39,552 bases of DNA from UHGV virus genome UHGV-0150234; one strand, given 5' to 3'. This document shows positions 215 to 19,033 of the stretch, piece by piece. The notes below the pieces were generated by a model. That model had not been told where the DNA came from and did not search any database. It saw nothing but the letters and a program-made list of their open reading frames with translations. A program made the position numbers and the translations under genes. The stretch comes from a virus. The first letter of the stretch is position 1. Each line of letters opens with the position of its first letter.

Positions 215-2104
215 ATGAGCAAAGTAAAAATCGGTGAATTAATAAACTCACTTGTTAGCGATGTTGAGTCAATAGATAACTCTGACCGTCCTCAAGGAGA
301 GAAAACAAAAAAAATAAAGGCCGTTGCATTAAAATTTAAAAATACATTATTTAATGATAAGCGAAAGTTTAGGGGAAAAGGATTAGAAAAGAGAATTACA
401 GCCAACACATTCAATTCCTATATGAGCAGGGCCAGAAAACGGTTTGATGATAAACTTCATCATAGTTTTGAAAAAAATATACATCGACTATCTGAAAAAT
501 ATCCTTTATATAATGAGGAGCTATTGTCATGGCTCTCTCTACCTGCTGCCGATATTCGCCGGAGAATGTCAGCTTTACAGGCAAAATTAAAATTAATTAT
601 TCCTCTGTCCGAAGATTTATCTAATATCAGAATTGGTGATAATAAAAATAATAATAAGTTAATAAAGTTATCAAATAAATATAAAGAATGGCAATTTGCC
701 ATTTCTGATTTAACTAGCGATAACTGGAAAGATAAACGCGATTATTTATATAAATTACTACAGCAAGGGTCAGCCTTGCTTGAGGAGTTGAATCAGTTAA
801 AGGTTAACCATGAGATTCTCTATCATCTCAAACTAAGCCCTGCCGAACGCGCATCTATCCAGCAACGATGGGCGGACGTACTACACAATAAGAAACGTAA
901 CGTAGTAGTCATTGACTACCCTAAATATATGCAAGCTATTTACGATATTATAAATAGCCCTGCTACATTAAATAATCTAAACACTCGTTCAGGCATGGCT
1001 CCTTTGGCATTTGCTCTTGCTGCATTATCAGGAAGACGAATGATTGAGATTATGTATCAAGGTACATTTACTGTCTCTGGTAAGTATACCGTTGATTTTT
1101 TAGGTCAGGCTAAAAAAAGAACTACTGATGATGTAACCAGAAAAATATATACATTATGCGAAGCAAAAACGTTTGTTTATTTAATAAATGTACTTCGCTC
1201 ATGCCCAGCAGCATCTGATTTTGATGAAGTCGTTATGGGTTACGGAAATAACGACACGCGGTCTGAAAACGGACGTATTAATGCCATATTGGCAAAGGCT
1301 TTTAATCCATGGGTTAAATCATTTTTCAATGATAATCGCCGTGTTTATAAAGATAGTCGTGCTATTTATGCCCGTATTGCGTATGAAATGTTTTTCCGCG
1401 TAGATCCCCGTTGGAAAAATGTAGATGAAGATGTTTTCTTTATGGAAATTTTAGGCCATGACGATGAAAACACTCAATTACACTATAAACAATTCAAGCT
1501 GGCCAACTTCTCAAAGACATGGAGGCCAAATACTGGAAACGAAAATACCAGGCTGGAAGCATTGCAGCTGCTTGATGACGAAATGCCTGGATTCGCCAGA
1601 GGAGATGCCGGGGTTCGTCTGCATAACACAGTTAAGCAGCTGGTAGAGCAGGACCCCTCTATAAAAATCACGAACAGCACTCTAAGAGCATTCAAATTTA
1701 GCCCAACAATGATTAGTCGATACCTGGAATTTGCTGCTGATGCTCTGGGGCAATTTGTTGGCGAAAATGGACAATGGCAGCTGAAAATAGATACTCCAGA
1801 AATCGTTATGCCTGACGAAGAAGAGCTGGAAGCAATACCTGAACAGATGGATGAATTATCAGAGGATGACGATCTGGATGACGACGAAATTGAGATAGAG
1901 GAAGAGGAAGAGAGCGTAGAAGAACAGCAACCGCCAGCGCCTTCTTCACCTGTATCTAAGCCGGTATTTAAGCCTGTGAGAAATATTGGTGATGGCTCAT
2001 ACGTTGTTGAGTTTCATTATAATGGCCAGAATTATGCGTGGTCAGGCAGTGCAAACAGCCCCATGTCAGCAATGCAGTTAGCATGGCTGACATATTTCGG
2101 CTAA
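215..2104 (+). CDS. telN: Protelomerase TelN (telomere resolvase), 629 aa
   Basis: Near-identity along the whole length to N15 TelN as recalled (MSKVKIGELIN..., tyrosine-recombinase-like core, acidic C-terminal region). Sits next to telRL. Confidence 0.95.
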   Translation: MSKVKIGELINSLVSDVESIDNSDRPQGEKTKKIKAVALKFKNTLFNDKRKFRGKGLEKRITANTFNSYMSRARKRFDDKLHHSFEKNIHRLSEKYPLYNEELLSWLSLPAADIRRRMSALQAKLKLIIPLSEDLSNIRIGDNKNNNKLIKLSNKYKEWQFAISDLTSDNWKDKRDYLYKLLQQGSALLEELNQLKVNHEILYHLKLSPAERASIQQRWADVLHNKKRNVVVIDYPKYMQAIYDIINSPATLNNLNTRSGMAPLAFALAALSGRRMIEIMYQGTFTVSGKYTVDFLGQAKKRTTDDVTRKIYTLCEAKTFVYLINVLRSCPAASDFDEVVMGYGNNDTRSENGRINAILAKAFNPWVKSFFNDNRRVYKDSRAIYARIAYEMFFRVDPRWKNVDEDVFFMEILGHDDENTQLHYKQFKLANFSKTWRPNTGNENTRLEALQLLDDEMPGFARGDAGVRLHNTVKQLVEQDPSIKITNSTLRAFKFSPTMISRYLEFAADALGQFVGENGQWQLKIDTPEIVMPDEEELEAIPEQMDELSEDDDLDDDEIEIEEEEESVEEQQPPAPSSPVSKPVFKPVRNIGDGSYVVEFHYNGQNYAWSGSANSPMSAMQLAWLTYFG

Positions 2105-2276: not shown

Positions 2277-3059
2277 CTATTTATTGGTGATTTCTGCTGG
2301 CTTTAGCTGCGCGGATAACTGCTCAAGTTTTTGAACTGCCAGTTCAAAATGCGCGGGCAACGCCTTTTCCAGATCAGAGTTAATATCGGTGATGGGCAAA
2401 TCACCACACGACATACTCCGCCTACCCCCACGAACAACATCACGCAACAACTCTCGTTCATACGTGCGCATGTTCCCCAATGCCGACTCAGCAGCCGTTA
2501 AAATCCGGCGCAGTTCTGCCGTAATTGCTGGTAAATCATCAACCGTTATGGGGTTCGGGGATGGATTACGACACGCCCGACGCAAAGCCAACCATACACC
2601 GCTAATCCAGGCATTTCGGTACTGAAAACTTTGTGCTATATCGTTGATCAGCCCTCGCAGATACTCTTTCTGCCTCCAGTTCAACGGCTCTGCTGCTCGC
2701 ATTGGCTCAGGTTCGACGTAAACGTACTCTCCATTCTTACGAATAGAGGGCAGGACCTCGTTCGTTACCCATTTACGAAACCGCCATGCAGTCGTGCCCT
2801 GTTTTACAGCGTCACGGCAGCGGAGGATCAGGGTGTATAGACCTGACTCTGAAATAATATTTAGCTTTTGCTCTCCGCCAGGGGTGTAACTTAAAGTTAC
2901 ACCCTTTTCATCCTCATCCAGAGACATTAGCGCCTTCCGGGAGTTAACGAGTCTTAAAGCATCACATACATCCTTAGCCACAAACCACGGCTCGCCGTTA
3001 ATCATCACTACACGAACCTGATGCTCTTCCTGAAAGGAAAAGACTGCTAACGCGCTCAT
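2277..3059 (-). CDS. Bro-N domain antirepressor-like protein, 260 aa
   Basis: N-terminal FSFQEEHQVRVV..GEPWFVAKDVCDALRL is a typical Bro-N/antirepressor signature. Last gene of a three-gene minus-strand operon. Confidence 0.75.
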   Translation of the reverse strand: MSALAVFSFQEEHQVRVVMINGEPWFVAKDVCDALRLVNSRKALMSLDEDEKGVTLSYTPGGEQKLNIISESGLYTLILRCRDAVKQGTTAWRFRKWVTNEVLPSIRKNGEYVYVEPEPMRAAEPLNWRQKEYLRGLINDIAQSFQYRNAWISGVWLALRRACRNPSPNPITVDDLPAITAELRRILTAAESALGNMRTYERELLRDVVRGGRRSMSCGDLPITDINSDLEKALPAHFELAVQKLEQLSAQLKPAEITNK

Positions 3060-3286
3060 TCAGCCTCCTTACCCAGCAATTGCGACGAGAGCGACGCGGA
3101 ATACCCCTGTGCTTCATGAGTTAACTCACACGCGATTTGAAGGAGCTTCCCGGCTTCTGATAGATAAATCGACGCCTCACAGCTGGATACTGTCCGATGG
3201 GCTGATGATACGAGCGCATAGACCTGAGCCAGACGTTCATCCAACGACTCCAGCAGGCCAACAGTGTTCATTTTTACCTGATTCAT
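3056..3286 (-). CDS. Hypothetical small protein, 76 aa (middle gene of antirepressor operon)
   Basis: ORF whose stop overlaps the start of the Bro-N gene and whose ATG overlaps the stop of the upstream small ORF (ATGA coupling). Confidence 0.5.
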   Translation of the reverse strand: MNQVKMNTVGLLESLDERLAQVYALVSSAHRTVSSCEASIYLSEAGKLLQIACELTHEAQGYSASLSSQLLGKEAE

Positions 3287-3447
3287 ACAGCCACCTCGCG
3301 CACCGGAATACGGGCAGACAATACCAGGACAAACCGGCTGGCGAACTGGCGACGAGCTTCCCGTTCAGATGACGCGATGGTGGAAAGATGATGGATGTGT
3401 GACTTTTTGTCTGTGCGAACGACTGCCGCAAATTTGAATTTGAACAT
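3283..3447 (-). CDS. Hypothetical small protein, 54 aa (first gene of antirepressor operon; not in the ORF track because it is under 60 aa)
   Basis: My own translation of the minus strand gives MFKFKFAAVVRTDKKSHIHHLSTIASSEREARRQFASRFVLVLSARIPVREVAV. ATG at 3447 is preceded by GGAG with 7-nt spacing; the stop overlaps the next gene's ATG. Confidence 0.4.
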   Translation of the reverse strand: MFKFKFAAVVRTDKKSHIHHLSTIASSEREARRQFASRFVLVLSARIPVREVAV

Positions 3448-3502
3448 GGTATGCACTCCGTTTAATTGGTCGTGCTACCACCAGAGTTCTCACGCTCTTG
3501 AA

Positions 3503-3584
3503 TGGTGGTAGCCCAAGCGGGGGTGAGAATACCGGCAAACGAAGAAACCGGCCTGACCGAAGTCAGCCCCGCCTGAGCCACCAT
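3503..3584 (-). ncRNA. Structured RNA candidate, copy 1 (about 82 nt; possibly C4/immI-type antisense RNA in the antirepressor operon leader)
   Basis: Minus-strand reading has a CUGAC-UUCG-GUCAG tetraloop hairpin, a GCGGGG/CCCCGC stem, and a 3' end GGGCUACCACCA. A paralogous copy at 3818-3898 shows compensatory changes. Confidence 0.45.
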
Positions 3585-3817
3585 AAATCGGATATGCGCA
3601 GGTATATACACACAAAAAAACACGCTGGCGCGTGTTGTGCGCTTCGTTTATCCGGGTTCTCACGCCCGGCTGCGGGATTTACCGCAGCGGAATAACTTTA
3701 CCGTCAAAACGACGCACACGTCAATAATTTGCAAAGACATTTTACCCTGTGACCAGTCACGGGGATAGGTGTTTTTATAGTTTGCTTAAACAAATGATTA
3801 GAAGATAAACGATATTG

Positions 3818-3898
3818 TGGTGGTAGCCCAGGCAGGGTTCTCAACACCGGCCCAAACGACACCGGCCAGCCTTTCGGCTGCCCCGCCTGAACTACCAT
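3818..3898 (-). ncRNA. Structured RNA candidate, copy 2 (paralogue of 3503-3584)
   Basis: Same conserved 5' (AUGGURGYUCAGGCGGGGC) and 3' (GGGCUACCACCA) ends as copy 1; the hairpin is CAGCC-GAAA-GGCUG (GNRA tetraloop), covarying with copy 1; internal loops differ. Confidence 0.45.
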
Positions 3899-4001
3899 TA
3901 GAATAATATACAACAAAACGTAGCATTTTTACTACATTAAAATATAAATATTGTTTACACTTTACTTTACTAATGGGGCGGCTCGGGCTATCCTGATTTT
4001 G

Positions 4002-4017
4002 CTGTATAAAAACACAG
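4002..4017. promoter_or_regulatory. LexA (SOS) box CTGTATAAAAACACAG
   Basis: Exact CTGT-N8-ACAG with AT-rich spacer, 62 bp upstream of the cma ATG and in the divergent region shared with the antirepressor operon. Confidence 0.6.
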
Positions 4018-4078
4018 TATTTATGCAGCGATTAAACCTGTATGTCTGTTATTTCATTAACTTATAAGGGTTTTTGAT

Positions 4079-4894
4079 ATGGATACTATCGTTGTGACAG
4101 CTCCATCACCATCAACTAACTTACCGAGTTATGGTAATGGCGCATTTTCTCTCTCAGCACCACACGTGCCTGGTTCTGGCCCCCTTTTAGTCCAGGTGGT
4201 TTACAGCTTTTTCCAGAGCCCAAACATGTGTATTCAGGCTCTAACTCAGCTTGAGGACTACATCAAAAAACACGGTGCCAGCGATCCCCTGACATTACAA
4301 ATTATGTCAACAAATATTGCCTACTTCTGTAACGCTGACAGAAACCTTATCCTTCACCGCGGAATAAGTGTTTATGACGCCTACCACTTAGCTAAACCTG
4401 CGCCAAATAAATATGACTATCGCTCAATGAATATGAAACAAATGAGCGGTAATGTCACAACACCAATTGTGGCGCTTGCACACTATTTATGGGGTAATGG
4501 TGCAGACCGAAGCGTTAATATCGCAAATATTGGTCTCAAAATTTCTCCGATGAAAATTAATCAGATAAGAGATATTGTAAAATCTGGTGTAGTAGGCACA
4601 TTCCCTATTTCTACAAAATTCACACACGCCACTGGCGATTATAATGTTATTACCGGCGCATATCTTGGTAATATCACGCTGAAAACAGAAGGTACTTTAA
4701 CTGTCTCCGCTAATGGCTCATGGACCTATAATGGCGTTGTTCGCTCGTATAACGACAAGTATGACTTCAATGCCAGCACTCATCGTGGCGTAATCGGAGA
4801 GTCTCTTACAAGGCTCGGGGCGATGTTCTCTGGTAAAGAGTATCAGATACTACTTCCTGGCGAAATTCACATTAAAGAAAGTGGCAAGCGATAA
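4079..4894 (+). CDS. cma: Colicin M (lipid II-degrading bacteriocin), 271 aa
   Basis: Full-length, near-identical to colicin M as recalled (same 271-aa length, ...VTAPSPSTNLPSYGNGAFSLSAPHVPG..., C-terminal ...GEIHIKESGKR). AT-rich relative to flanks. Confidence 0.92.
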   Translation: MDTIVVTAPSPSTNLPSYGNGAFSLSAPHVPGSGPLLVQVVYSFFQSPNMCIQALTQLEDYIKKHGASDPLTLQIMSTNIAYFCNADRNLILHRGISVYDAYHLAKPAPNKYDYRSMNMKQMSGNVTTPIVALAHYLWGNGADRSVNIANIGLKISPMKINQIRDIVKSGVVGTFPISTKFTHATGDYNVITGAYLGNITLKTEGTLTVSANGSWTYNGVVRSYNDKYDFNASTHRGVIGESLTRLGAMFSGKEYQILLPGEIHIKESGKR

Positions 4895-4895
4895 T

Positions 4896-4922
4896 AAAAA
4901 GGCCGGGATTCCGGCCTTTTTT
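4896..4922. terminator. Bidirectional intrinsic terminator between convergent cma and cmi
   Basis: AAAAA-GGCCGG-gatt-CCGGCC-TTTTTT: GC stem flanked by an A-run and a T-run. Confidence 0.7.
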
Positions 4923-4944
4923 ATGCAGTCTTTATACCGATGTA

Positions 4945-5301
4945 TCAATCATTTGCATATTCAACATAACCTTCCTTGCAATGGTACATTCCATAATACA
5001 TTCTCTTACCTTCCGGGCCTTCGGCTTTAAATGGGACGAGAAGCGTTTTTTCATCTTTAACATCTGTTAAGCTTCTTTCAATCTTTTCCCACGTAATTTT
5101 TGGGGCTTCTGTACCGAGAAGTTGTACATCGTTATTCCAACGCGTTATTTTTTTCAAAAAGTCATTTTTTACAAATTCTCTTGCCTGTTCATCACTAACC
5201 TTATAGCACTCTGGGCCTTTATTAGATTCAGGCCAGAAAAATACAATAGCAAGAGCAATAATTGATAAAATCAAAATGATTTTTATGCTAATTACTTTCA
5301 T
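4945..5301 (-). CDS. cmi: Colicin M immunity protein (membrane-anchored, periplasmic), 118 aa
   Basis: N-terminal hydrophobic anchor (ILILSIIALAIVFF) and strong resemblance to Cmi as recalled (…KITWEKIERSLTDV.DEKTLLVPFKAEGP.GKRMYYGMYHC.EGYVEYAND); convergent with cma. Confidence 0.88.
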   Translation of the reverse strand: MKVISIKIILILSIIALAIVFFWPESNKGPECYKVSDEQAREFVKNDFLKKITRWNNDVQLLGTEAPKITWEKIERSLTDVKDEKTLLVPFKAEGPEGKRMYYGMYHCKEGYVEYAND

Positions 5302-5428
5302 AAAATCTCCATCACCTTAAAAGCAAAACATACATATTTAGCCTTCATATTGTATGAGTATATCAATACAGTGTGTGCTTAATGTGAAGTAAAATTAACA
5401 ATATATAAACATTTAATATGCCGCGCAC

Positions 5429-5836
5429 TTAGTCGGCTTTATGAGTATCAACCATATACTTCAACCAGTAATCAACAATCGGTTGCTCATCTACAGAATG
5501 TTTACCAGGTATAACTCGCCAGCTATCTTGCGAAAATCTGCCGTACTTACGCGGGAATAGGCCTTTCTTTATCTCCCGCCATGTACTAGGAAAACCATCC
5601 ACAAAAGTACCAATTAACAGGAGAGGGACAAAAATCAGAGCTACAAACCATCGTGCAAGAAAGTGTTCAACAACAACATTTTCACCGTTGTAGTAATACG
5701 CATACGCATCCAATATGCGAATTTTCCTTACCTTAAAAATAGCCTTATGCTGAGAACGACTTAACTTGATACGAATGTATCCCTTATCCAAAGGGGATTC
5801 GTATTTGTATGATTGAACAGCCATTTTTAACCCCAC
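5429..5836 (-). CDS. Hypothetical protein with one predicted transmembrane segment, about 131-135 aa
   Basis: ORF with hydrophobic stretch WFVALIFVPLLLIGTFV; overlaps the upstream ORF by 10 nt (operon-like). No family recognised. Confidence 0.5.
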   Translation of the reverse strand: MGLKMAVQSYKYESPLDKGYIRIKLSRSQHKAIFKVRKIRILDAYAYYYNGENVVVEHFLARWFVALIFVPLLLIGTFVDGFPSTWREIKKGLFPRKYGRFSQDSWRVIPGKHSVDEQPIVDYWLKYMVDTHKAD

Positions 5837-6156
5837 TCACCATCAGCAAACAAAGCGTTATACTCTGATAATGGTAAATGATGCCCCTCAATTGCCAGAT
5901 TAAGCCCCAAATGGGTAGATGGGTGTTCCTTATCTGGCTCCTCCTCCCACAATTCAGAAGCTAAAGAAGCTAAACGCTCAGCCGCTTTCACGTAGTTTTC
6001 TGTCCTGAACCAACCCAAATTAATCCCACCATCAGTGATCTCCCAGGCAACTTTCTTCTCTTCTTCCTGAATAGCCTTAATGCGTCGATCGCATTCATCC
6101 CGGCAGAACTTCAGCTGACGGTAATCAAGTTTGTCCAAAAATGCAGTAGTAGACAT
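5827..6156 (-). CDS. Hypothetical protein, 109 aa
   Basis: ORF immediately downstream of repA on the same strand. No family recognised. Confidence 0.5.
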   Translation of the reverse strand: MSTTAFLDKLDYRQLKFCRDECDRRIKAIQEEEKKVAWEITDGGINLGWFRTENYVKAAERLASLASELWEEEPDKEHPSTHLGLNLAIEGHHLPLSEYNALFADGEWG

Positions 6157-6214
6157 ATTTTTACTCCCCGTTCACCGAAAAATCACGATTTCCACATACG
6201 ATAATATCCACTGA

Positions 6215-9200
6215 TTACCCATAGAAAGCGCCCTGCTCTTCGTAGCTGCATGGGCTATTCCCGGTAATATATTCACGTAACCGCCGCAGTTCATTACTGG
6301 ACAAGTGATCCATGAACTCTGTTAGGTACAGAGATGCAAACGTCATAGCTATGCTGGCTGATGACCATGATGACATAGTGGCCAGCTCCTCACAGGAAAG
6401 CGCACTCATAGCCCAGGACTCAGGTACAGCCACCGGCAACACTGCCAAAGCCTCAGAAATTACTGAATGAGGGGCGTTTTGAACCTGCTCATTTGTGGAT
6501 CGCGTTTTATCATCCATATATATATTGAGATCCAAATCGCGATCCATTTCGATGGCGGTCTTCTCGGCTTTGCGCGTTTTCAGGGTTAGGCCATCTTTCT
6601 GACGCTGAGCAAGAATATCCAGCATAAATGCCGCTGATTCAGGCTCAACAAAACGCAAGGTTGGACGCTTATCGCCGTCTCTGCCACGACGTTTACCTGT
6701 TTTAAGGCCAAGAGAGTCGCAAATGTTTTTAAACAACGCTTCCGGCACTTTAGGCTTCCCTTTTGGCGTCATAAAACCACCAATGTGCAGAACGTTATTC
6801 AACAGGTCACGGCGTTCGGCTGTCATGAGGTTATCTCGAGCGAATTTGAGACGCTCCTGAGTCGCCTCGCCGGTCATAGTCTCAGGGTTGATACCGCAGT
6901 CGATAAAGTACTGCCGGAGAGTTGCTGATTTAAGCGCATAGAAACCGCGCGCCCCGACTTCAACAGTAGGAGTAGCTTTTACCTTGTAGTCGATTATTCC
7001 AGGGAATTTAGTTTTAAAGACATCATCAGCCTGCTCGCGAGTCATCGCGGTCACTACAAAATATTGCCACTGTCCCGCCTGACGGTATGCGTAGGTAAAA
7101 TTGATGGCTGCTTCTTCCCGGTCGTAACGACGAGCTGTTACCTCATCTAAAAGCATTGTTTCATAGCGGCGAACTTTGTCTCGAGCACCATCGAAATAGA
7201 ATTTCAGCGTGCCTTCTTCAACCGGTAGTTTCAGTTCGTTCTCAATATCCCAGCGGACAAGTTTTGCCTGTTCTTCAAGCGTCAGCGCGCGTTTTTTTAG
7301 CAGTTCTTCACGCTCTGATTCTTGTGGAGTTTCTGTATTGAGATGCAGATCCAGTGTCTGTTCCCACACAATATCCCGCGCTTCTTTACGCAGATCTTTA
7401 CCGATATCATTCGCAGCATAATCGGTGGCCAGCGGCGATACCTTATAACCGTCGCTGTGCATGATGCAGATCATGTTGCTGGCGTAGTCGTTACGCGCAG
7501 ACGCTTCAATTGCGGCTGCTTTAATTTTCATCCTGGTAAAGTCGGTATTGGCCACCCCCATTGATATACGGTCGCCATCGAAAACGACATCCGTCAGTTC
7601 ACCGTTCATGCCTGCGGTAGCAAGCAATGCCTGGGCGAATGCTCGTTCTATTTTTTGCGGGTCAGTTTCACGTTTTGCGCGAGCTTTATCAAAGCCGATA
7701 ATAAATTCTTTTGCTGTACGGTCGCGGCGTAGCATTTGCACTGCGTCGCTGGGTACAACTTCACCACAGAACATGCCGAAATGACGGTCAAAATGTTTTT
7801 GCTCAATCGACACGCCGGATGAAATAGACGGGCTATAAATCAGGCCGTCGTATTTTTTGACCATCTTTTTCGGTTGATTGGTAAATGCTTCAACTTCTGG
7901 CTCTGGTTTGTTTTTCTGGTTTACACACAGAAATTTCTTACCAGGAAAATGCATTCTCAGGGTGGCGGTCACATCTTCTGCAAAGGTGGAGCTGTCGGTG
8001 GCCAACATAATTTTTTCGCCATCCGATACAGCTTTCACCACCTCGGTCATAATGCGATCTTTTTCTGTATAAAAAACCCGGATTGGCTCACCTGTTTCGC
8101 GGTTGCGAACATCAACAGGTAATTCAATTACGTGGATCTGCAGCCATGCGGGTAAACCGAGTTCTTCGCGGCGTTTCATAGCCAGTTCAGCCAGGTCAAC
8201 CAGCAGATCGTTCGCATCAGCATCCACCATGATTGGGTGTTGTTCCGTTCTGGCCAGCGCATCAATTAGCGTATTGAATACAGCCACCGGGTTTTCCATA
8301 GCCCGACCGGAAAGAACGGCACGTAGCCCTTGTGTTGCCTCGTCAAAGCCAAAATAGTCGTGCTGGCGCATCAACGGTTGCCAGCAGTTTTTAACAATCG
8401 AGTTTATGCAGATGGTCAGTTTACTGGCGTATGGGGCCATTTCCTGATAGCCAGGGTCCTGATAGTGCAGGATATCGGCTTTTACACCTTTTCCTTCAGT
8501 CATCATTTCCCACAGACCACCAATAAGGGAAACACGGTGAGCTACAGAGATACCACGTTCTGAGCTATGCATTAACGGTCGTAACAATCCAGTAGATTTG
8601 CCGGAACCCATACCAGCACGGACGATGACTATCCCCTGTAGTGATTGCACGTACTTCAGGACGTCATCGGTCATTACCGAAGTATCAAAACGCTTATAGG
8701 TGATATGTTGAGGGCGTTTATTGGGATCAGTTATGCGTTCGCTGAAAGAGCGCGGAGCCTGGGCAATACGGCACTTTTTATTCAGGCGACGGGCAATATG
8801 GTCTTTTACCGTAGCGCGATAGATATTTTCCAGCCCCATTTCACGCAGAACGATACAGAACATGTTAAATAAATCTGACGGGCTGTTAGGAACCGGACAG
8901 GTCAGCATGCCAATATCTACCGCTCTCAGCAGCTCTTTGGCAAAAGTACGGCGGTTATCCCGCTTAATTGTCTTCAGGCGGTTGAGTGTCAGAGATAGCA
9001 AATCAGTACCGGTTTTCAGGCGGTTTGCTGTTGCGAATAGTTGACGTGCTGTTTCACGAAGTCCACGTAGTTTGTGCAGGTCGTTGAAGTCACTGCACTC
9101 CATTTGCGGATCGTCTTCAAAAGTTGGGTAGACGCAGCGGACATCGTTGAATTTAGATAAGATTTCATAGCCAGTCCGCAGGCCGGTATTCCCTTTTCCT

Positions 9201-10210
9201 TCTGTGGCAGATTTCCGGTCATTATCCAGTGCGCAGGTGATTTTTGCCGCCGGGTACATGTTTACCAGTTGTTCCACAACATGAACCATGTTGTTAGCGG
9301 ATACAGCGACAACCACAGCGTCAAAGCGTTTATCTTTTTTCGTGGCAAGCCAGATGGATGCACCAGTAGCAAAACCTTCTGTAACAGCGATGTTTTGCGC
9401 CCCTTTCAGCTCACCGATAACAAAGCAGGCACCGACGAAATCGCCGCTGGTTACTGCGCTGGTCTGGTATTTCCCACCTTGTTTGTCGATTCGCTGCCAA
9501 CCCACAATACGACCATCATAACGACCGTCCAGGTGAGCCAGAGGGATAGCCATATATGTGGTTGGCCCCCGGCTCCATTTCGCACTGTCGTGACTGGTCA
9601 CGCGACGCACATCACATGAACTAAAAACGTCACGAATACCTTTTTTAATCGCATATGGCCATGAGCCGTCTTCAGCCTGAGCATGTTCCCACGCGCTGTG
9701 GAATGCCAGCCATCCCAGCAAACGTTCATGGTCCATTTGGTTGTTTTTCAGGTCATTAATTCGTTTTTGTTCTTCACGGCGACGACGTGCTTCGGCCTGA
9801 CGTTCTATTCTTTCCCGTTCTTCTTCCGGTTGTGCGACCACGGTCGCATTATTCCGTTGTTGCTCACGGCGATATTCAGAAAACAGGAAGGAGAAACCGC
9901 TCCATGAGCCAGCATCGCTGCCTTTATGGACGAAGTTAATGAACGGGTAATCAATCCCTTTGCTGTGTTCCAGCCTGGAGTAAATTTCTACGCGTCCTTT
10001 CAGGCTCTTTTCGAGAGCTTCTGGAGATGTTTTATTGTATGAAGAGTAACGCTCAACCCCCCCGCGAGGGTTGAGTTGGATGTTGTCGGAACAGGCAGGC
10101 CAGTTGATACCAGCCATCTGTGCCAGCTCGGTTAGTTCATCCCGTGCTGCTTCAATTAGCGAGAACGGATCGCTGCCAAAGCGATCCGCATAGAAATCGT
10201 TTAATGTCAT
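6215..10210 (-). CDS. repA: Multifunctional replication protein RepA (primase-helicase), 1331 aa
   Basis: Size and position match N15 RepA (about 1324 aa from memory). Walker A motif GMGSGKST is present. Downstream of cB on the same strand. The N15 origin is reported to lie inside the 3' part of repA (recalled, not located here). Confidence 0.9.
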   Translation of the reverse strand: MTLNDFYADRFGSDPFSLIEAARDELTELAQMAGINWPACSDNIQLNPRGGVERYSSYNKTSPEALEKSLKGRVEIYSRLEHSKGIDYPFINFVHKGSDAGSWSGFSFLFSEYRREQQRNNATVVAQPEEERERIERQAEARRRREEQKRINDLKNNQMDHERLLGWLAFHSAWEHAQAEDGSWPYAIKKGIRDVFSSCDVRRVTSHDSAKWSRGPTTYMAIPLAHLDGRYDGRIVGWQRIDKQGGKYQTSAVTSGDFVGACFVIGELKGAQNIAVTEGFATGASIWLATKKDKRFDAVVVAVSANNMVHVVEQLVNMYPAAKITCALDNDRKSATEGKGNTGLRTGYEILSKFNDVRCVYPTFEDDPQMECSDFNDLHKLRGLRETARQLFATANRLKTGTDLLSLTLNRLKTIKRDNRRTFAKELLRAVDIGMLTCPVPNSPSDLFNMFCIVLREMGLENIYRATVKDHIARRLNKKCRIAQAPRSFSERITDPNKRPQHITYKRFDTSVMTDDVLKYVQSLQGIVIVRAGMGSGKSTGLLRPLMHSSERGISVAHRVSLIGGLWEMMTEGKGVKADILHYQDPGYQEMAPYASKLTICINSIVKNCWQPLMRQHDYFGFDEATQGLRAVLSGRAMENPVAVFNTLIDALARTEQHPIMVDADANDLLVDLAELAMKRREELGLPAWLQIHVIELPVDVRNRETGEPIRVFYTEKDRIMTEVVKAVSDGEKIMLATDSSTFAEDVTATLRMHFPGKKFLCVNQKNKPEPEVEAFTNQPKKMVKKYDGLIYSPSISSGVSIEQKHFDRHFGMFCGEVVPSDAVQMLRRDRTAKEFIIGFDKARAKRETDPQKIERAFAQALLATAGMNGELTDVVFDGDRISMGVANTDFTRMKIKAAAIEASARNDYASNMICIMHSDGYKVSPLATDYAANDIGKDLRKEARDIVWEQTLDLHLNTETPQESEREELLKKRALTLEEQAKLVRWDIENELKLPVEEGTLKFYFDGARDKVRRYETMLLDEVTARRYDREEAAINFTYAYRQAGQWQYFVVTAMTREQADDVFKTKFPGIIDYKVKATPTVEVGARGFYALKSATLRQYFIDCGINPETMTGEATQERLKFARDNLMTAERRDLLNNVLHIGGFMTPKGKPKVPEALFKNICDSLGLKTGKRRGRDGDKRPTLRFVEPESAAFMLDILAQRQKDGLTLKTRKAEKTAIEMDRDLDLNIYMDDKTRSTNEQVQNAPHSVISEALAVLPVAVPESWAMSALSCEELATMSSWSSASIAMTFASLYLTEFMDHLSSNELRRLREYITGNSPCSYEEQGAFYG

Positions 10211-11143: not shown

Positions 11144-11365
11144 ATGAAACCAGAAGAACTTATTCGCCACTTTGGCAGTGTAGAAAAAGCAGCGGCAGGG
11201 GTAGGTGTAACACCCGGAGCTGTTTACCAATGGTTAACCGCTGGAGAGATTCCTTCATTGCGGCAAAGCGATATTGAAGTTCGTACTGCTTATAAGCTGA
11301 AGAGTGACTTTACAACTCGGCGGGTAAAGCAGTCGATTAAGGAGAGTCGTAAGCGTGGAGCTTGA
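11144..11365 (+). CDS. cro: Cro-like HTH regulator (YdaS/Cro family), 73 aa
   Basis: HTH motif AAAGVGVTPGAVYQWL; divergent from cB. Start chosen at ATG 11144 rather than the track start 11117. Confidence 0.75.
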   Translation: MKPEELIRHFGSVEKAAAGVGVTPGAVYQWLTAGEIPSLRQSDIEVRTAYKLKSDFTTRRVKQSIKESRKRGA

Positions 11366-12065
11366 GTATATACGCAGCTGCGTCTCTACGGCATTGGCTG
11401 ATGTTCATTATCGCCAGCGTGGCATTCTGGAGGTCCAGCTTGAGCAGATGCGTCTCGGTAGATCAGGACGGTTTAACAATAAACCAGTCCGGTCAATCAG
11501 TGTGGGGGATGATAACTCATACGAAGTGTCCGTTCCTGCTGAGCCGGTAAGATTCCACCAGGGGAAAACATTTAAACAATCATCAATGTTGCTCACTGAT
11601 ATTGATTTTCAGAGCGCCAGCTGGCGCAGGGCTATTGGTCAGTTGAATAACGAGGAATCAGCCTGGCTTTATTATTGCTACGGATGCAAGCCAGATTACA
11701 ACAATGATGTGATTGTTTGTCAGTGGTTATGGCTTGATTTTCTGGTTGCTCATTCGGGGGGCGGCTTTAAAAAAATGAAGGCCTCCACGAAAAAAGCCAT
11801 GCGGAAATTGATTTATTACGCGGCACAGCAGGTTAAATCAGAACTTACGTGTGCTGAGGCAGTTGATGAGAGAGAACAGGACAGGCATCTGAGTTTTCTG
11901 CTGAATATATCTATTGATAGCTGGAGACAAGATTATAAAGAACGCTGGCTTTTAATTAAGTCGCGATGTCTGAGCTTAAATCGAACTGCATTATTAAATG
12001 CGGCGGAGAAGCGCAGTGAAATCATCAAACGCCATCGGGCAGGAAGTGCCATTCTGCCTTTGTAA
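11355..12065 (+). CDS. Hypothetical protein, 236 aa; in the position of the N15 Q-like late regulator (function by synteny only)
   Basis: ORF immediately after cro (GTG start overlapping cro end). No motif recognised with confidence. Confidence 0.5.
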   Translation: MELEYIRSCVSTALADVHYRQRGILEVQLEQMRLGRSGRFNNKPVRSISVGDDNSYEVSVPAEPVRFHQGKTFKQSSMLLTDIDFQSASWRRAIGQLNNEESAWLYYCYGCKPDYNNDVIVCQWLWLDFLVAHSGGGFKKMKASTKKAMRKLIYYAAQQVKSELTCAEAVDEREQDRHLSFLLNISIDSWRQDYKERWLLIKSRCLSLNRTALLNAAEKRSEIIKRHRAGSAILPL

Positions 12066-12072
12066 ACAAGTT

Positions 12073-12318
12073 ATGTTCAGGAAACCGTCGAAGCCAGAAT
12101 TAAGGTATTCGGGGGTAAGAAATGAATATGTTATCTGGTGTCCAACTTGTGGTTACAGGACACGACCAGATAGTAATAAGCAGTCTGTAATTGCCGATTG
12201 GTATTTATCAAATCAGCCAGGTAATAAGCATATAGAAAATCTTTGGATTAAGCGTTACTTGGAAATCAGAGAGGGTGCGACCGTGGTCGCACAAGAAAAT
12301 GAAAATAACGCCATTTAA
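12073..12318 (+). CDS. Hypothetical small protein with CxxC pair (possible zinc ribbon), 81 aa
   Basis: ATG at 12073 inside track ORF 11998-12318; contains CPTCG. The 3' end overlaps a sopC-like palindrome. Confidence 0.4.
   Translation: MFRKPSKPELRYSGVRNEYVIWCPTCGYRTRPDSNKQSVIADWYLSNQPGNKHIENLWIKRYLEIREGATVVAQENENNAI
12275..12292. other. sopC-like centromere-type palindrome GTGCGACCGTGGTCGCAC (copy 1 of 5)
   Basis: 7-bp inverted arms GTGCGAC/GTCGCAC around CGTG; one substitution per arm from the F sopC SopB site (TGGGACCACGGTCCCA) as recalled. Confidence 0.6.
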
Positions 12319-12502
12319 GCAGGGGCCGATGACGCATGATGAAGCAGAGCGTCTTTCAGATACTTATCGGCGGCGTGGTAAGAAAGTTCTGGTTGTTCGT
12401 TCTGATTTTTTAGGTGATGGATATTGCGTTTATGTTCATTTACCTGAATCAGAAAGAACGCCAAAACCATCCAGAACATATCAACAGAAAATTTGGGTAT
12501 AG
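12299..12502 (+). CDS. Hypothetical small protein, 67 aa
   Basis: ORF (internal ATG of track ORF 12275-12502). No family recognised. Confidence 0.35.
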   Translation: MKITPFKQGPMTHDEAERLSDTYRRRGKKVLVVRSDFLGDGYCVYVHLPESERTPKPSRTYQQKIWV

Positions 12503-12525
12503 ATAAACGTTGAGGAGAATTATTC

Positions 12526-13125
12526 GTGACTAATCAGATTATTTACGACAGGAAACGGTCTGATGTAATGATTGACCTTGAAACAATGGGTACTAACACA
12601 TGTGCTCCAATTGTTTCTATCGGGGCAGTGTTTTTTTCTCCAGAAAATGAGGAATTAGGTCCTACTTTTTATGTGCCAGTGAATCTCAGAAGCTCGATGT
12701 TGAATGGTGGTGTCGCCGATGGTGATACCATTTTATGGTGGTTGAAACAGAGCAAGGAAGCCAGAGCCGCAATTTGTACTAATGATGCCCTTGATATTAA
12801 GGATGCACTTTTTGAATTATCACACTTTATTACTTGCCATGCATGTAATTTAAAAAAATTGAAAGTATGGGGAAATGGAGCAACGTTCGATAATGTAATT
12901 TTACGCGGTGCTTATGAGCGCGTTGGCTTAGCCTGTCCGTGGGAATATTTTAATGATCAGGATGTTCGAACAATCGTTAATCTTGGTCAGTTTATTGGTT
13001 TTAATCCTAAAAAAGATATGCCATTTGATGGCGAACGACACAATGCCCTGGCTGATGCTATTCATCAGGCTAAATATGTATCCGCAATTTTCTCCCGTCT
13101 TGTAAAAGGGCAAGGAGAATCGTAA
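12526..13125 (+). CDS. DnaQ-like (DEDDh) 3'-5' exonuclease, 199 aa
   Basis: MIDLETMG (Exo I motif) and HNALADA (Exo III motif); GAGGAG ribosome-binding site 8 nt upstream of the GTG start. Confidence 0.75.
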   Translation: MTNQIIYDRKRSDVMIDLETMGTNTCAPIVSIGAVFFSPENEELGPTFYVPVNLRSSMLNGGVADGDTILWWLKQSKEARAAICTNDALDIKDALFELSHFITCHACNLKKLKVWGNGATFDNVILRGAYERVGLACPWEYFNDQDVRTIVNLGQFIGFNPKKDMPFDGERHNALADAIHQAKYVSAIFSRLVKGQGES

Positions 13126-13547
13126 TGGCAAAGGCTTTTACACCAGAACAGAGGGAAGAACTGAATAAACAAATTGTGGAACTCGTACGCCTGAATGGAC
13201 GAGGAACGGTTAGGCAACTTGCGGATGAAACTGGTATTAGCCGGTGTGCTGTTAGTCGTTTATCAAGAGAGCTTGCTGCCAGTGGTGATTTGTATATCTC
13301 TGGCTCCGGGATATTTCTGTCTGCACAAGCACGCAAGGACTGGCAAAACGCCCGTAAAAAGCTATCAAGAGTAAAGCCGAAGAAATCGGTAGTGGTTGAT
13401 CCAGACCTTATCTGGTCATTACCTGACGGAGAAATACGTCGTTACGACAGGCGCTTGAACATGATTTGTCACGATTGCCAGAAGAGCGAAGTTATGCAGC
13501 GTGTGCTGGCGTTTTATCAGGGAAATCTTCAGGAGGTAGTACTGTGA
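13125..13547 (+). CDS. Hypothetical HTH/winged-helix protein, 140 aa
   Basis: ORF with ATG overlapping the upstream stop (TAATG); HTH-like segment TVRQLADETGISRCAVSRLSRELA. Confidence 0.6.
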   Translation: MAKAFTPEQREELNKQIVELVRLNGRGTVRQLADETGISRCAVSRLSRELAASGDLYISGSGIFLSAQARKDWQNARKKLSRVKPKKSVVVDPDLIWSLPDGEIRRYDRRLNMICHDCQKSEVMQRVLAFYQGNLQEVVL

Positions 13548-14296
13548 GTGAAATCAATTATCAGGTACTGCGTGAGATAGCAAAACAGGCAACACAGGGT
13601 GAATGGGTCGCATTTATTTCGCCGGGTACTGGTACGTATGCAGTGCATACGCCCGGTGATAAACGATGTGAAGACGTTATCAAATGGACCGGCTTTGACG
13701 GACAGAAAAACGCAGAGAACAACGCTCATTATATCGCAGCTTTCAACCCTGAAGTAGTGCAGGCACTGCTGGATGAACGAGAGGCTCAAAGCAAACGCAT
13801 TGCAGAGCTGGAGGCCAGTTGCGCGGCTCTGGCGGCGGAGAATGCAAGACTGAAGGCCGGGGCTATGTATTTCTCATATGGCTCTGAATTTAGTTTCGAG
13901 TGTCACAAAACTGCTGAGGAGGCTATCGCTGCTGCTGAGGCTGCAATTGACGACTATAGAGGCGATGCTTGCGATGGATGGAGCGAAGAGGTCGAAAGCA
14001 TTTGCTGGGGGGTAATTATTCAGCAGGCAACCAAGGTCGGTGAACGCAAGAAGAGGAAATGCGACAGAGTATCACCATGGATTGAAAGAGTTTGTGATTA
14101 TGAGCTTCGACCTAATGTCGAAACCCCAGCCACCGACTCTTTCCTGTCTGAAGTGCGGGCGCAGGGGGTGGAAATGTTTGCACAGAAATGTAACTCAAAA
14201 TCCGAACAGTCGCTTGCATCTGATATACGCGATAACTGGAAACTACTCGGTGAGCATGCGACTGACTTTGCCGCAGAGATTCGCAAAGGAGAGTGA
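13544..14296 (+). CDS. Ead/Ea22-like protein, about 250 aa
   Basis: AGGAGG then GTG start overlapping the upstream stop; acidic, coiled-coil-rich sequence typical of lambdoid Ead/Ea22 proteins (recalled). Confidence 0.6.
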   Translation: MSEINYQVLREIAKQATQGEWVAFISPGTGTYAVHTPGDKRCEDVIKWTGFDGQKNAENNAHYIAAFNPEVVQALLDEREAQSKRIAELEASCAALAAENARLKAGAMYFSYGSEFSFECHKTAEEAIAAAEAAIDDYRGDACDGWSEEVESICWGVIIQQATKVGERKKRKCDRVSPWIERVCDYELRPNVETPATDSFLSEVRAQGVEMFAQKCNSKSEQSLASDIRDNWKLLGEHATDFAAEIRKGE

Positions 14297-14297
14297 T

Positions 14298-14747
14298 ATG
14301 ACCACTATTACCAGAGAAAACTCGAAGATTAAATCATTCATCAATGGCTTCCTGAGCGACCCGGCGCACGATAACCAATCCTCAGACAGCCTGCTTGCCA
14401 ATGTGTTTCGTATCGCACAGGCATCGCTGGAAGCAGAACCGATGGCATGGCGATATCGCTACGTGAAAAAAGGCATTACGGACTCACAGGGGGAGCCGTG
14501 GGTTGGTGACTGGAAATATGTACCGACAAAAGAGGATTGCAACGACAGACCGAACTATGAAATTCAGGCGTTATTCACTGCCCCGCCTGTGCCACTGACA
14601 CCAGAAGGATTGATTAAAGCAGTGCGCTTCTATGAACAGGTTAAGCGTGAAAATCCGCCAGTCGAAACCGGAGCATGGAAAGACGCTGTTGACTGGGTGC
14701 TCAAAGAGGCTTGCCAGGCTGTAAACATTGGTACCAAAGGAGATTGA
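14298..14747 (+). CDS. Hypothetical protein, 149 aa (paralogue of the next gene)
   Basis: ATG at 14298 preceded by AAAGGAG; shares the motif ASLEAEP(M/V)AW with the downstream gene. Confidence 0.6.
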   Translation: MTTITRENSKIKSFINGFLSDPAHDNQSSDSLLANVFRIAQASLEAEPMAWRYRYVKKGITDSQGEPWVGDWKYVPTKEDCNDRPNYEIQALFTAPPVPLTPEGLIKAVRFYEQVKRENPPVETGAWKDAVDWVLKEACQAVNIGTKGD

Positions 14748-14748
14748 T

Positions 14749-15162
14749 ATGAGCACTTTTACCGACAAAGAACTGATTAAAGAAATCAAAGAGCGCATAG
14801 GCAGCCTGGACGTGAGAGACAATATTGAGCGCCGGGCTTATGAAATAGCGTTAGCCTCGCTGGAAGCAGAACCGGTGGCATGGCTGCATTCAGACAATGG
14901 CTTAGGTATTCCGGCAATAACCCGGAGTAAAAACATTGCTGACAGTTGGTTATCAAAGGGCTGGTATGTTCAGTCATTATATGTAGCCCAGCCACTGCCG
15001 GTGGTGCCGGATGATAATCGTATTCAGTTTTCTGTTTCACTTCCTGCAGCGTTTGGTGGAGATAAATATTTTATTGATGGTGTATTTCAACCTTTGAGAT
15101 ATGAGCGTGACTGTGAAAGGGCGGTTGTGGCCGCTGGCGGTGTAGTTAATTGGGTTAAGTAA
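14749..15162 (+). CDS. Hypothetical protein, 137 aa (paralogue of the previous gene)
   Basis: ATG at 14749 preceded by AAGGAG in the same context as the upstream paralogue. Confidence 0.6.
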   Translation: MSTFTDKELIKEIKERIGSLDVRDNIERRAYEIALASLEAEPVAWLHSDNGLGIPAITRSKNIADSWLSKGWYVQSLYVAQPLPVVPDDNRIQFSVSLPAAFGGDKYFIDGVFQPLRYERDCERAVVAAGGVVNWVK

Positions 15163-15177
15163 TTTTCAGGAGGATTT

Positions 15178-15504
15178 ATGGCGCTGACACCGGCAGAACG
15201 GCAAAGGAGACGCAGGGAACGGTTGAAGAAGGAAGGCACATCAAGACGGGACTGGATTCTAGAACCTGACGAGTTACGTATGTTGGGGGAAATTTGTGTA
15301 TTGCGTAGACCAGGGCGAGTTCCATATTCGGAGAACGAAGTCATTGGTTTGCTGATCAGGAAAAACTATAAGGAGCTGCAGAAGCAGCTATCTACTACTT
15401 GCCCGCGATGTGGTCAAAAAATGCCTGTTTCAGAATGCATTTTTGATGGCGAAGGCTCATGCCACCTTACAACCACGAGGTTGAAACTTGCGCTCAAAGC
15501 GTGA
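15178..15504 (+). CDS. Hypothetical protein with Arg-rich N-terminus and C-terminal CxxC motif, 108 aa
   Basis: ORF with AGGAGG upstream. No family recognised. Confidence 0.5.
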   Translation: MALTPAERQRRRRERLKKEGTSRRDWILEPDELRMLGEICVLRRPGRVPYSENEVIGLLIRKNYKELQKQLSTTCPRCGQKMPVSECIFDGEGSCHLTTTRLKLALKA

Positions 15505-15522
15505 CTGGTCACGGAGGGATAA

Positions 15523-15793: not shown

Positions 15794-15809
15794 CTGTAAT
15801 TTTATACAG
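15794..15809. promoter_or_regulatory. LexA (SOS) box CTGTAATTTTATACAG overlapping a -10-like TATAAAT
   Basis: Exact CTGT-N8-ACAG with AT spacer, 39 bp upstream of the 15848 ATG. Confidence 0.6.
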
Positions 15810-15847: not shown

Positions 15848-16051
15848 ATGTCTGAAGCAGCCGTATCAACTCTTGAACAACTCGATTCAAATTTAAGAGA
15901 TATTGACGCCGTTCTGGATCTGGTTAGCGTCACCCTGGCTTCTCCAGAAGCCAGCCTACATATTGGTGAGGTTTCACGACTCATCAACATGTCGCGAGAG
16001 ATTGCCCAGCATTGTCAGAAAACTATCGCTGTTGAGCGTTCACATCATTGA
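15848..16051 (+). CDS. Small SOS-box-associated protein, 67 aa (candidate DNA-damage-inducible antirepressor or regulator)
   Basis: Monocistronic ORF directly downstream of a consensus LexA box. No family recognised. Confidence 0.5.
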   Translation: MSEAAVSTLEQLDSNLRDIDAVLDLVSVTLASPEASLHIGEVSRLINMSREIAQHCQKTIAVERSHH

Positions 16052-16093: not shown

Positions 16094-16381
16094 TTAATAA
16101 ACAGCGCGAATATCGATGGTTGCGCCGCAGGCATGAGCATATTTAGCCAAAGTTTTCATACTTGCCCCTAAAGGATTGCTTTCCAGGCGGCTGATGGCTG
16201 ACGGGCGCAACCCCATTCGTTCAGCCAGAGCTGATTTCGTTAAACCTGCTCTTTCCCTCATTTCGTATAACATTTCGACCATCTCCAGCTCTTTGTCGGC
16301 CTCTTCATATCCTTTGACGGCTTCTGGAGTGTTGAGGAGTTTTTCTTTTACTTCGTTAAACGGGATGCCTTTCGCTTTCAT
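16094..16381 (-). CDS. HTH-XRE antitoxin (HigA-like), 95 aa
   Basis: HTH segment LTKSALAERMGLRPSAISRLE; start overlaps the stop of the upstream RelE/HigB-like gene. Confidence 0.75.
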   Translation of the reverse strand: MKAKGIPFNEVKEKLLNTPEAVKGYEEADKELEMVEMLYEMRERAGLTKSALAERMGLRPSAISRLESNPLGASMKTLAKYAHACGATIDIRAVY

Positions 16382-18760: not shown

Positions 18761-19033
18761 ATGAAGATGGATGAACGATACAGCAGCGCACCTTATGGTA
18801 GTGCTGGTCTTACTGCGTTCTTTGCCAGCCTGTCATTGCAGGATTGGGGCTTCATTATCGGTGTCGCGTTCAGCATTATCCTCGGTGTACTTACATACCG
18901 GCTCAATAAACGCGAGCAGATGAAGCGCACGAAGATATTGCAGGACATATTGGATAAAACTGATGCCAATAATATTTCCGCCACGGCGATGGTTATTGGT
19001 GAATTGGGAAAGAGAGCACCGAAGGAAATATGA
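18761..19033 (+). CDS. Holin, phage-21 S21 pinholin-like, 90 aa
   Basis: Two hydrophobic segments and resemblance to S21 as recalled; directly upstream of a SAR endolysin with ATGA overlap. Confidence 0.8.

Follow-up and report, generated by a model that had tools for sequence, protein, structure and literature searches.

Colicin M and colicin M immunity genes behind a predicted LexA box in the accessory slot of an N15-like telomere phage-plasmid

The stretch of DNA analysed here (the window) comprises 39,552 nucleotides (nt) of the viral genome UHGV-0150234, a contig from a metagenome (JGI 3300045988), and our subject is a small block within it that encodes a colicin M and its immunity protein. 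The toxin gene, cma, runs on the plus strand from an ATG at 4079 to a stop codon ending at 4894 and encodes 271 amino acids (aa). The immunity gene, cmi, is convergent with it on the minus strand (4945-5301) and encodes a YebF-like protein of 118 aa. Between them lies a bidirectional intrinsic terminator, and ahead of cma stand a candidate promoter and a LexA (SOS) box. By its gene content the carrier is an N15-like Escherichia telomere phage-plasmid, a prophage living as a linear plasmid.

The cma product aligns over residues 1-271 with residues 1-271 of crystallised colicin M in a PDB search (2xmx, expectation value E=9e-174) and scores 481 bits against the Pfam family Colicin_M (PF14859, cut-off 27, E=8e-145). 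On these matches it is a full-length, three-domain colicin M of the lipid II-degrading bacteriocin class. The catalytic motif DxYD(x5)HR is kept as DKYDFNASTHR at residues 226-236, and D226, Y228, D229, H235, and R236, which are essential in colicin M (PMC8469651), are present without exception (5 of 5). Residue D225 is N in the window protein and in other phage-borne alleles. The TonB box, E2-T-L-T-V6 (ETLTV) in colicin M, reads DTIVV, with V6 kept and L4 changed to I. These changes are conservative, and the colicin M proteins of Salmonella and Klebsiella phages have the same or a near-identical variant (DTIVV, DTLVV); the inactivating TonB-box changes reported for colicin M are L4P/N and V6E/G/R (PMC8469651). 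We consider FhuA-dependent killing by the window colicin M very likely.

The cmi product matches the solved Cmi structures 4aeq (E=1e-55) and 2xgl in the PDB search, as well as Pfam YebF, and is about 83% identical to canonical Cmi. It retains the hydrophobic residues 1-23 that form the N-terminal membrane anchor, both cysteines, and the C-terminal E-Y pair (...EGYVEYAND), all reported to be important (PMC8469651). The acidic patch E81-D82-E83 (EDE) reads KDE, an E81K change. This patch has been implicated in immunity, with loss of immunity reported for the triple mutant only (PMC8469651), and the KDE form may reflect coevolution of Cmi with the window colicin M allele. Together, the structure and Pfam matches bear out the original prediction for this DNA, made from the letters alone, that a full-length cma of 271 aa faces a convergent cmi.

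The terminator common to both genes (4896-4921) is a hairpin, AAAAAGGCCGG-GAUU-CCGGCCUUUUU, with an 11-bp stem flanked by a run of five A on one side and six T on the other, a folding energy of -19.6 kcal/mol, and a z-score of -3.6. It agrees with the bidirectional terminator that had been proposed between the genes, and it was overlooked by a consensus scanner because the T-run is absorbed into the stem. The upstream region of cmi (5349-5412, minus strand) holds a weak candidate promoter, CACACA-17-TACAAT at 5377-5349, and is conserved with other colicin M cassettes and with pColBM, the plasmid type on which cma follows the colicin B genes cba and cbi. We found no open reading frame (ORF) or Pfam match for cba, cbi, or a colicin lysis gene in the window, and no small lipobox-bearing ORF of the lysis lipoprotein type in any frame of 3700-6300. 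The claim that no colicin B or lysis gene lies upstream therefore stands on ORF, Pfam, and lipobox scans alike. Group A-type colicin operons, by contrast, have a small lipoprotein lysis gene after the toxin or immunity gene.

The block occupies a variable accessory slot in the phage backbone. Homology with the close relative pG749_3 ends at 3816 and returns at 5437, delimiting a unit (3817-5436) that contains a second C4 antisense RNA (C4#2), the cma promoter, cma, the terminator, cmi, and the cmi upstream region. Homology with the Klebsiella phage NAR688 ends at 3798 and returns at 5969, breaks that exactly flank the telA and immA genes of NAR688. GC content is 0.33-0.42 over 3800-5600 versus about 0.48-0.53 in both flanks. 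The original prediction of an AT-rich block between the antirepressor operon and repA is thus right in composition and order, but C4#2 intervenes on the left and two small conserved backbone genes (5429-5836 and 5827-6156, both minus strand) lie between cmi and repA. Likewise, both genes and the LexA box do lie within the 3999-5301 first given for the cassette; the mobile unit is wider, as seen from the breaks at 3816 and 5437 and from homology with a Salmonella phage cassette over 3927-5412. In pG749_3 the slot holds a gene for a 270-aa protein (locus L001, 4334-5146) with no match in Pfam, PHROG, or PDB. In PhiR46_1 it holds a gene annotated as a Spackle superinfection-exclusion protein (L016, 3086-3373), and in YDC107_1 and N15 it is essentially empty. 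By these comparisons the slot is a general hotspot of accessory cargo, and at least one of the cargo genes is annotated as a phage-exclusion gene.

Bacteriocin cargo at this position has a precedent. The telocins TelA-TelE are bacteriocin-immunity cassettes of Klebsiella telomere phages, located between repA and the protelomerase gene (Byers et al., Sci Adv 2025, PMC12042878), and by location and organisation the cma-cmi block is a telocin. The NAR688 telA/immA cassette shares with it the break in the backbone, the convergent toxin and immunity genes, and a LexA box just after a -10-like hexamer. The toxins differ in class: the telocins comprise two pore formers (TelA and TelE), the pesticin-like TelB, and the colicin Z-like TelC and TelD, whereas the window encodes the lipid II-degrading colicin M. 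They also differ in host, with published telocins in Klebsiella and the window in Escherichia; colicin M versions occur in Salmonella and K. pasteurii phages as well. In Salmonella enterica telomere phages (22 contigs; L021-L023 are about 43-47 kb) the same slot encodes a colicin M with 86% identity and a Cmi-like protein with 69%, and in a Klebsiella pasteurii telomere phage the values are 86% and 68-69%; both sets came to light in a Cmi homologue search. These two settle affirmatively whether related phages carry the cassette at the same site, a check proposed along with the original prediction. In K. pasteurii two toxin cassettes are stacked (L024/L025, 4276-7243), one of colicin M type with a Cmi-like gene and the other encoding a 299-aa protein with a ColA_N domain, each with its own LexA box.

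The LexA box of the window cassette, CTGTATAAAAACACAG, lies on the plus strand at 4002-4017, separated from the cma ATG by 61 nt; the exact position is the one originally predicted (where the distance was put at 62 bp), and the box is conserved in relatives. Against the LexA consensus, TACTGTATATATATACAGTA, the box and its flanks match at 16 of 20 positions, and the spacer is AT-rich. The pattern CTGT-N8-ACAG occurs three times in the window versus 0.46 expected, and the chance of one falling within the 176-bp region upstream of cma is about 0.002. The best plus-strand promoter candidate in this sole available intergenic space is TTTACT-17-TATCCT at 3966-3994, which matches the sigma-70 consensus at 8 of 12 positions and ends 7 nt before the start of the LexA box; its placement as the cma promoter is inferred from this fit. 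No second overlapping LexA box, and no further half-site pair at the right spacing, is found at cma.

A perfect CTGT-N8-ACAG lies 60-61 nt before the ATG in four diverged colicin M lineages, although the surrounding DNA is just 68-75% identical. Besides CTGTATAAAAACACAG in the Escherichia phage, the boxes are CTGTATATAAATACAG in the Salmonella phage and CTGTACGTATGTACAG in the K. pasteurii phage, both at 61 nt, and CTGTACATGCATACAG at 60 nt in the chromosome of Enterobacter kobei, which encodes a colicin M (75% identity) with a Cmi-like gene (L027-L029, 5925-7193). The LexA core is also unchanged in all nine other loci with the window cassette. The Salmonella promoter reads TTTACT-17-TATCTT, again with 7 nt to the LexA box. 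The same arrangement precedes slot toxins unrelated to colicin M: telA of NAR688 has TTGACT-17-TACCTT and the ColA_N-type toxin of K. pasteurii TTGACT-17-TACGTT, each 7 nt from a LexA box, as compared with a 5-nt gap at the cba promoter on pColBM. In total, boxes precede telA in three loci (NAR688 3811-3826, 48ST307 3079-3094, and a K. pneumoniae plasmid 3623-3638; CTGTACGTTTATACAG or CTGTATGTTTATACAG, all perfect) and the ColA_N-type toxin in two K. pasteurii loci. No LexA box is present at the slot in any of the six toxin-less relatives compared. Because the distance is conserved, the box recurs before unrelated slot toxins, and the geometry fits a repressed promoter, we consider the box before cma to be probably functional, and binding and control by LexA there are likely. 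Toxin genes at the telomere-phage slot appear to be under LexA control in general.

The 176-bp region is divergent, and the box could instead govern leftward transcription of C4#2 (3816-3902, minus strand; Rfam RF01695, 69 bits, E=1.6e-12), tying SOS to an anti-immunity RNA. C4#2 does need a promoter, and weak minus-strand hexamers (CATACA-17-AATACT, 7 of 12 positions) lie over the box. However, a better minus-strand candidate sits at 3934-3905 by the 5′ end of the C4 RNA, about 70 bp from the box; the distance from box to ATG is fixed in loci that have no second C4 (Salmonella L021 and L023, and E. kobei); and the same box and promoter geometry precedes telA with no adjacent C4. We regard control of C4#2 by this box as very improbable.

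The window carries a second LexA box, CTGTAATTTTATACAG, at 15794-15809 on the plus strand, within the TTGACC promoter of a gene for a 67-aa small antirepressor (15848-16051, plus strand; PHROG anti-repressor family) that we call antC-like. This backbone site is conserved in pG749_3, 48ST307, NAR688, and N15. The 67-aa protein is 56% identical to the product of an unannotated ORF behind N15's own LexA box, which is presumably antC. It is also paralogous to a 76-aa AntA-like protein encoded at 3056-3286. As cited in PMC4488713, N15 is induced through the LexA-repressed antirepressor AntC (Mardanov and Ravin 2007), and by analogy the antC-like gene is presumed to be the SOS trigger of prophage induction. 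Downstream, an intact lysis cassette (18761-19988, plus strand) encodes a holin-like protein, an endolysin, and Rz, with Pfam matches to Phage_holin_2_3 (below the curated cut-off), Phage_lysozyme (E=1e-47), and Phage_lysis (E=1e-39). Because both cma and the antC-like gene have LexA boxes and the lysis cassette is intact, SOS could switch on the toxin and the lytic programme together, and co-induction of cma with the prophage is on this basis rather likely. N15 has the homologous small ORF and LexA box at the equivalent position and no toxin cassette in its slot; the window differs in having a second LexA-boxed promoter, before a bacteriocin gene.

We propose that the block is probably a self-contained bacteriocin module, consisting of SOS-controlled cma, a shared terminator, and the opposed cmi in a telocin slot, whose toxin is released at induction. 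In the lysogen, cmi would be transcribed leftward from its own promoter, and membrane-anchored periplasmic Cmi would guard the cell from imported colicin M. Rightward transcription of cma would start from the weak TTTACT-17-TATCCT promoter, with a single LexA box over the start region, and expression would stay low until DNA damage inactivates LexA. The same signal would derepress the LexA-controlled antC-like antirepressor at 15848, whose product, by analogy with N15, would inactivate the CB repressor and start lytic growth. Holin, endolysin, and Rz would then lyse the cell and free virions together with cytoplasmic colicin M, which would enter FhuA/TonB-proficient non-lysogens and cleave their lipid II, while sibling lysogens would survive through Cmi.

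For release, colicin M is described as having no lysis protein and a release route that is unknown (PMC8469651). Release by prophage lysis has been shown experimentally in Salmonella for colicin Ib, which likewise belongs to group B and lacks a lysis gene (PMC7374059). Phage lysis as the main release route of the window colicin M has, by this analogy, a slightly better than even chance.

Several points weigh against this proposal. At cma there is a single LexA box rather than the two overlapping boxes of many colicin operons (PMC2994835), and the promoter hexamers are weak, falling under the standard scanner threshold. The DTIVV TonB box and the KDE patch differ from the studied proteins, and neither uptake nor immunity specificity is guaranteed. 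The window is part of the phage only, so inducibility cannot be judged from it. Only a fraction of colicin Ib-expressing Salmonella cells also turn on prophage lysis (PMC7374059). Proteomics detected TelA and ImmA in NAR688 lysogens at mid-log phase without induction, and these lysogens outcompete sensitive strains in plain co-culture, again without induction (PMC12042878). Because TelA is made and the advantage is seen without induction, full SOS induction may matter less than basal expression or expression in a subpopulation, and the regime that counts may be spontaneous induction in a subpopulation.

The same NAR688 results favour an account in which cma expression is low and roughly constitutive, colicin M leaks out or exits by phage-unrelated cell death, the LexA box adds little, and the phage is a vehicle. 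The weak cma hexamers would suit this, as would a pColBM cma-gfp fusion that gave uniform low expression without an SOS box. It does not, however, account for a LexA box held at a fixed distance in four diverged colicin M lineages and recurring before unrelated slot toxins. Moreover, colicin M would need some form of lysis to leave the cell because it carries no export signal and is not accompanied by a lysis gene, and detection in uninduced cultures fits spontaneous SOS in a subpopulation equally well. We therefore consider constitutive expression with leakage unlikely.

A further possibility is that the main selected function is maintenance of the phage-plasmid, where plasmid-free cells lose Cmi and are killed by the colicin M of their siblings (population-level addiction). 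The toxin and immunity genes are inherited as one unit, on an element that already has low-copy plasmid replication, sopAB, and a RelE/ParE-type pair aboard. Addiction would need the same expression and release steps and is thus compatible with the SOS-controlled module proposed above; telocins at the same locus have been shown directly to kill competitor strains (PMC12042878). As the main selected function, addiction seems improbable.

The closest protein relative of the window colicin M is the pColBM allele, represented here by pEC_B24, with 250 of 271 residues identical (92%). The two share the convergent cma and cmi, the same terminator, an identical catalytic motif, the same Cmi fold family, and the lack of a lysis gene. 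They differ in setting: in pColBM, cma lies behind cba-cbi on a conjugative F-type plasmid, whereas in the window it is stand-alone, with its own LexA box, on a temperate phage, and the gene next to it on the upstream side, on the other strand, encodes a C4 RNA. On pColBM, cma lacks both an SOS box and any recognisable promoter to itself and relies on the SOS promoter of cba (PMC2994835, PMC8469651). We confirmed the cba-cbi-cma-cmi layout and the dual LexA boxes before cba in the sequence of pEC_B24, in line with the contrast to the pColBM context that the original prediction had drawn. DNA homology with pColBM begins at 4045, 34 nt before the cma ATG, leaving the LexA box outside, and on the cmi side reaches about 100 bp past the cmi start (window 5353-5402 corresponds to 5297-5346 of L011, a pColBM sequence). 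A candidate remnant LexA box before pColBM cma was rejected: a MAFFT alignment put TTGT...GGAG under the window box, with the wrong half-sites and at 52 nt rather than 61 nt.

Given that relationship, cma-cmi might be a recent capture from a pColBM-type conjugative plasmid, with the LexA box a chance feature of the insertion site. Such plasmids are very common in E. coli, with 633 matching PLSDB records. Against recent capture, all plasmid copies in PLSDB and complete E. coli genomes are only 86-87% identical to the window in DNA, and between the window and pEC_B24 cma has a synonymous divergence (dS) of 0.62 and a nonsynonymous divergence (dN) of 0.039 (dN/dS=0.064). No intermediate allele was found in PLSDB or complete E. 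coli genomes. Additionally, homologues of the promoter and LexA box occur in the Salmonella phage cassette and not in pColBM, and the next-closest colicin M clade is also on telomere phages. A recent capture is highly unlikely; cma in the window is an old allele that has evolved separately and under strong purifying selection.

To place these alleles we built a neighbour-joining tree of full-length colicin M homologues rooted on 50-54% identical Klebsiella and Rouxiella proteins. The window groups with pColBM colicin M in 200 of 200 bootstraps, and this pair is sister to the K. pasteurii and Salmonella phage alleles, with the same full support (200 of 200). The pColBM protein stands apart at about 14 positions from the three phage alleles, which there agree with one another. 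Homology between the cassettes of the window and Salmonella takes in both the promoter DNA and the DNA upstream of cmi (window 5356-5412 matches L021); pColBM keeps the cmi side only. These observations, to which we add the LexA box at 60 nt in the more distant E. kobei copy, could mean that the telomere-phage cassette (LexA promoter, cma, terminator, cmi, and cmi promoter) is ancestral and that pColBM cma-cmi is a 5′-truncated escapee that came to lie behind cba-cbi. We put this forward tentatively, as somewhat less probable than not; on context alone, it is equally parsimonious that the phage slot twice took up the cassette, independently, from an ancestor on a plasmid or chromosome. If true, escape from a phage would explain why pColBM cma has no promoter or SOS box of its own and no known release mechanism, and the native setting of the toxin would be induction with the prophage and release by phage lysis.

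The window allele was sought across sequence collections. The exact Cmi protein is on record on 67 contigs, in 148 blocks of an assembly collection, from E. coli and E. albertii isolates and metagenomes, and every Cmi-bearing contig that was read has the same phage context. The cma and cmi coding sequences are 100% identical across nine other loci. In 50,697 phage records (INPHARED) the cassette DNA had no blastn match, and the sole colicin M-type match by tblastn was a gene with 36% identity in a Pseudomonas phage-like cluster. Colicin M peptides gave nothing real against IMG/VR viral contigs and GTDB species representatives. The pColBM allele, at 86-87%, was the only one present in PLSDB and in complete RefSeq genomes of E. 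coli; no record held the window allele or its context. The LexA-box region likewise has no plasmid homologue in a PLSDB search with 3817-4050, where the C4 part alone matched.

Full-text literature searches returned no link of colicin M to a telomere phage or phage-plasmid. The telocin paper makes no mention of colicin M, lipid II, SOS, or LexA (PMC12042878), and a 2025 UK Health Security Agency (UKHSA) preprint on English clinical isolates reported no telocin homologue in N15-like elements of Escherichia, Shigella, or Salmonella. The nearest parallel to the proposed release is colicin Ib of Salmonella Typhimurium (Nedialkova 2016; Spriewald 2020, PMC7374059), an SOS-induced colicin whose logic of release, shown by experiment there, we propose for the window as well. 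Colicin Ib, however, is encoded on a plasmid and relies on the lysis genes of lambdoid prophages in trans, whereas the window has toxin, immunity, switch, and lysis genes on one replicon. The Pseudomonas match lies in a phage-like cluster of Pseudomonas fluorescens Q8r1-96 (Pseudomonas phage DVM-2008, EU982300) and is annotated cma, but its similarity is confined to the catalytic domain. It differs from the window gene in host, phage type, and receptor domains, and the element that carries it is not a telomere phage.

Bacteriocin cargo at the telomere-phage locus (PMC12042878) and phage-lysis release of a group B colicin (PMC7374059) are already known. What appears to be new is that a telocin has a colicin M-class toxin and an Escherichia host, that LexA boxes recur at telocin promoters, and that cma exists in a stand-alone, SOS-boxed form, which is possibly ancestral to the pColBM copy. 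If confirmed, telocins would widen from Klebsiella to Escherichia and Salmonella and gain a lipid II-attacking toxin class, with a LexA logic at the slot that published telocin work does not discuss. The presence of toxin, immunity, SOS switch, and lysis genes on one 47-kb replicon would offer a natural test system for colicin M release. Colicin M production could spread by phage infection as well as by conjugation, and in E. coli populations the carriers may escape plasmid-typing and colicin-typing schemes.

The rest of the window fits the carrier assignment. The gene set includes a protelomerase, an N15-type repA, sopAB partition genes, a CB/Cro/Q immunity region, and a lambda-like lysis and virion module. 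Over 25 kb the backbone shares 96-97% identity with Escherichia phages YDC107_1 and PhiR46_1 and with many 'plasmids' from E. coli, E. fergusonii, E. albertii, and Shigella. The protelomerase gene (215-2104, plus strand) is annotated as such in relatives and is identical to genes in L002 and L008 that match Pfam TelK and ResT, and repA (6215-10210, minus strand) encodes an N15-type replication protein of 1331 aa. Adjoining the antC-like gene, a Gp49-like (RelE/ParE/HigB-type) toxin gene and a helix-turn-helix (HTH) antitoxin gene (16094-16692, minus strand) match N15 genes 48 and 49 and form a plasmid-stabilising toxin-antitoxin pair. We also looked for a link to FhuA through a Cor-type exclusion gene and dropped it: the only matches of a small ORF close to sopB in L002 were to PHROG families without a known function. 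In the relative L004, two protelomerase copies lie inverted and face to face (11189-15506), the pattern expected of an assembly read through a hairpin telomere, and cassette-bearing 'contigs' of 96 kb are probably the same hairpin read-through.

On the left of the slot, the backbone carries an immA-type anti-immunity operon of the P1/N15 type (2277-3724, minus strand), consisting of a promoter-like site, a1b1/isrK, C4#1, an icd-like gene, the AntA-like gene, and a Bro-N antirepressor part (2277-3456). C4#1 is at 3501-3588 on the minus strand (Rfam, 82 bits). Upstream of it, Rfam isrK (64 bits) and c4-a1b1 (42.5 bits, below gathering) overlap at 3615-3701 on the minus strand, preceded by a promoter-like site (TTGACG-18-TAAAGT, 3724-3695) as expected for the leader of an anti-immunity operon. 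C4#2 lies between this operon and cma, at the left edge of the cargo block, and is about 75% identical to C4#1 but 85-89% identical to C4 RNAs of Klebsiella and Enterobacter telomere phage-plasmids. A second C4 is absent from the toxin-less and telA-carrying relatives compared, setting the window cassette apart from telA; it is present in the colicin M-bearing Salmonella L022 and K. pasteurii L024 and not in Salmonella L021, L023, or E. kobei. No a1b1 target partner accompanies C4#2, and we rejected a role for it in regulating cma, as no sequence complementary to its loop was found elsewhere in the window. Its loops differ among sublineages with an identical cma cassette (L004, L006, and L007 versus the window). 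C4#2 could be a recombination scar or provide an extra anti-immunity specificity. In K. pasteurii L024/L025 a complete extra isrK/C4 module separates the two toxin cassettes, a layout which suggests that the C4 module may be a recombination anchor for swapping or stacking telocins.

Three side observations concern the other colicin M loci and LexA-like sites. The E. kobei pair is close to umuDC-like and phage-tail-fibre-like genes. A colicin M (72% identity) with a Cmi-like gene also occurs at 6001-7217 of L026 (Logan SRR21633407, 109.6 kb), with no LexA box in the 220 bp upstream; L026 encodes a Rep3-type initiator and gp32-like, RecA-like, 5′-3′ exonuclease, and SbcCD-like genes as well, and may be a different, large phage-plasmid type. 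The third CTGT-N8-ACAG of the window, CTGTCCATGATGACAG at 34956-34971, falls inside an 853-aa ORF (32904-35465), the largest of the virion module, and is probably a chance match, with a spacer that is not AT-rich and no evident promoter context.

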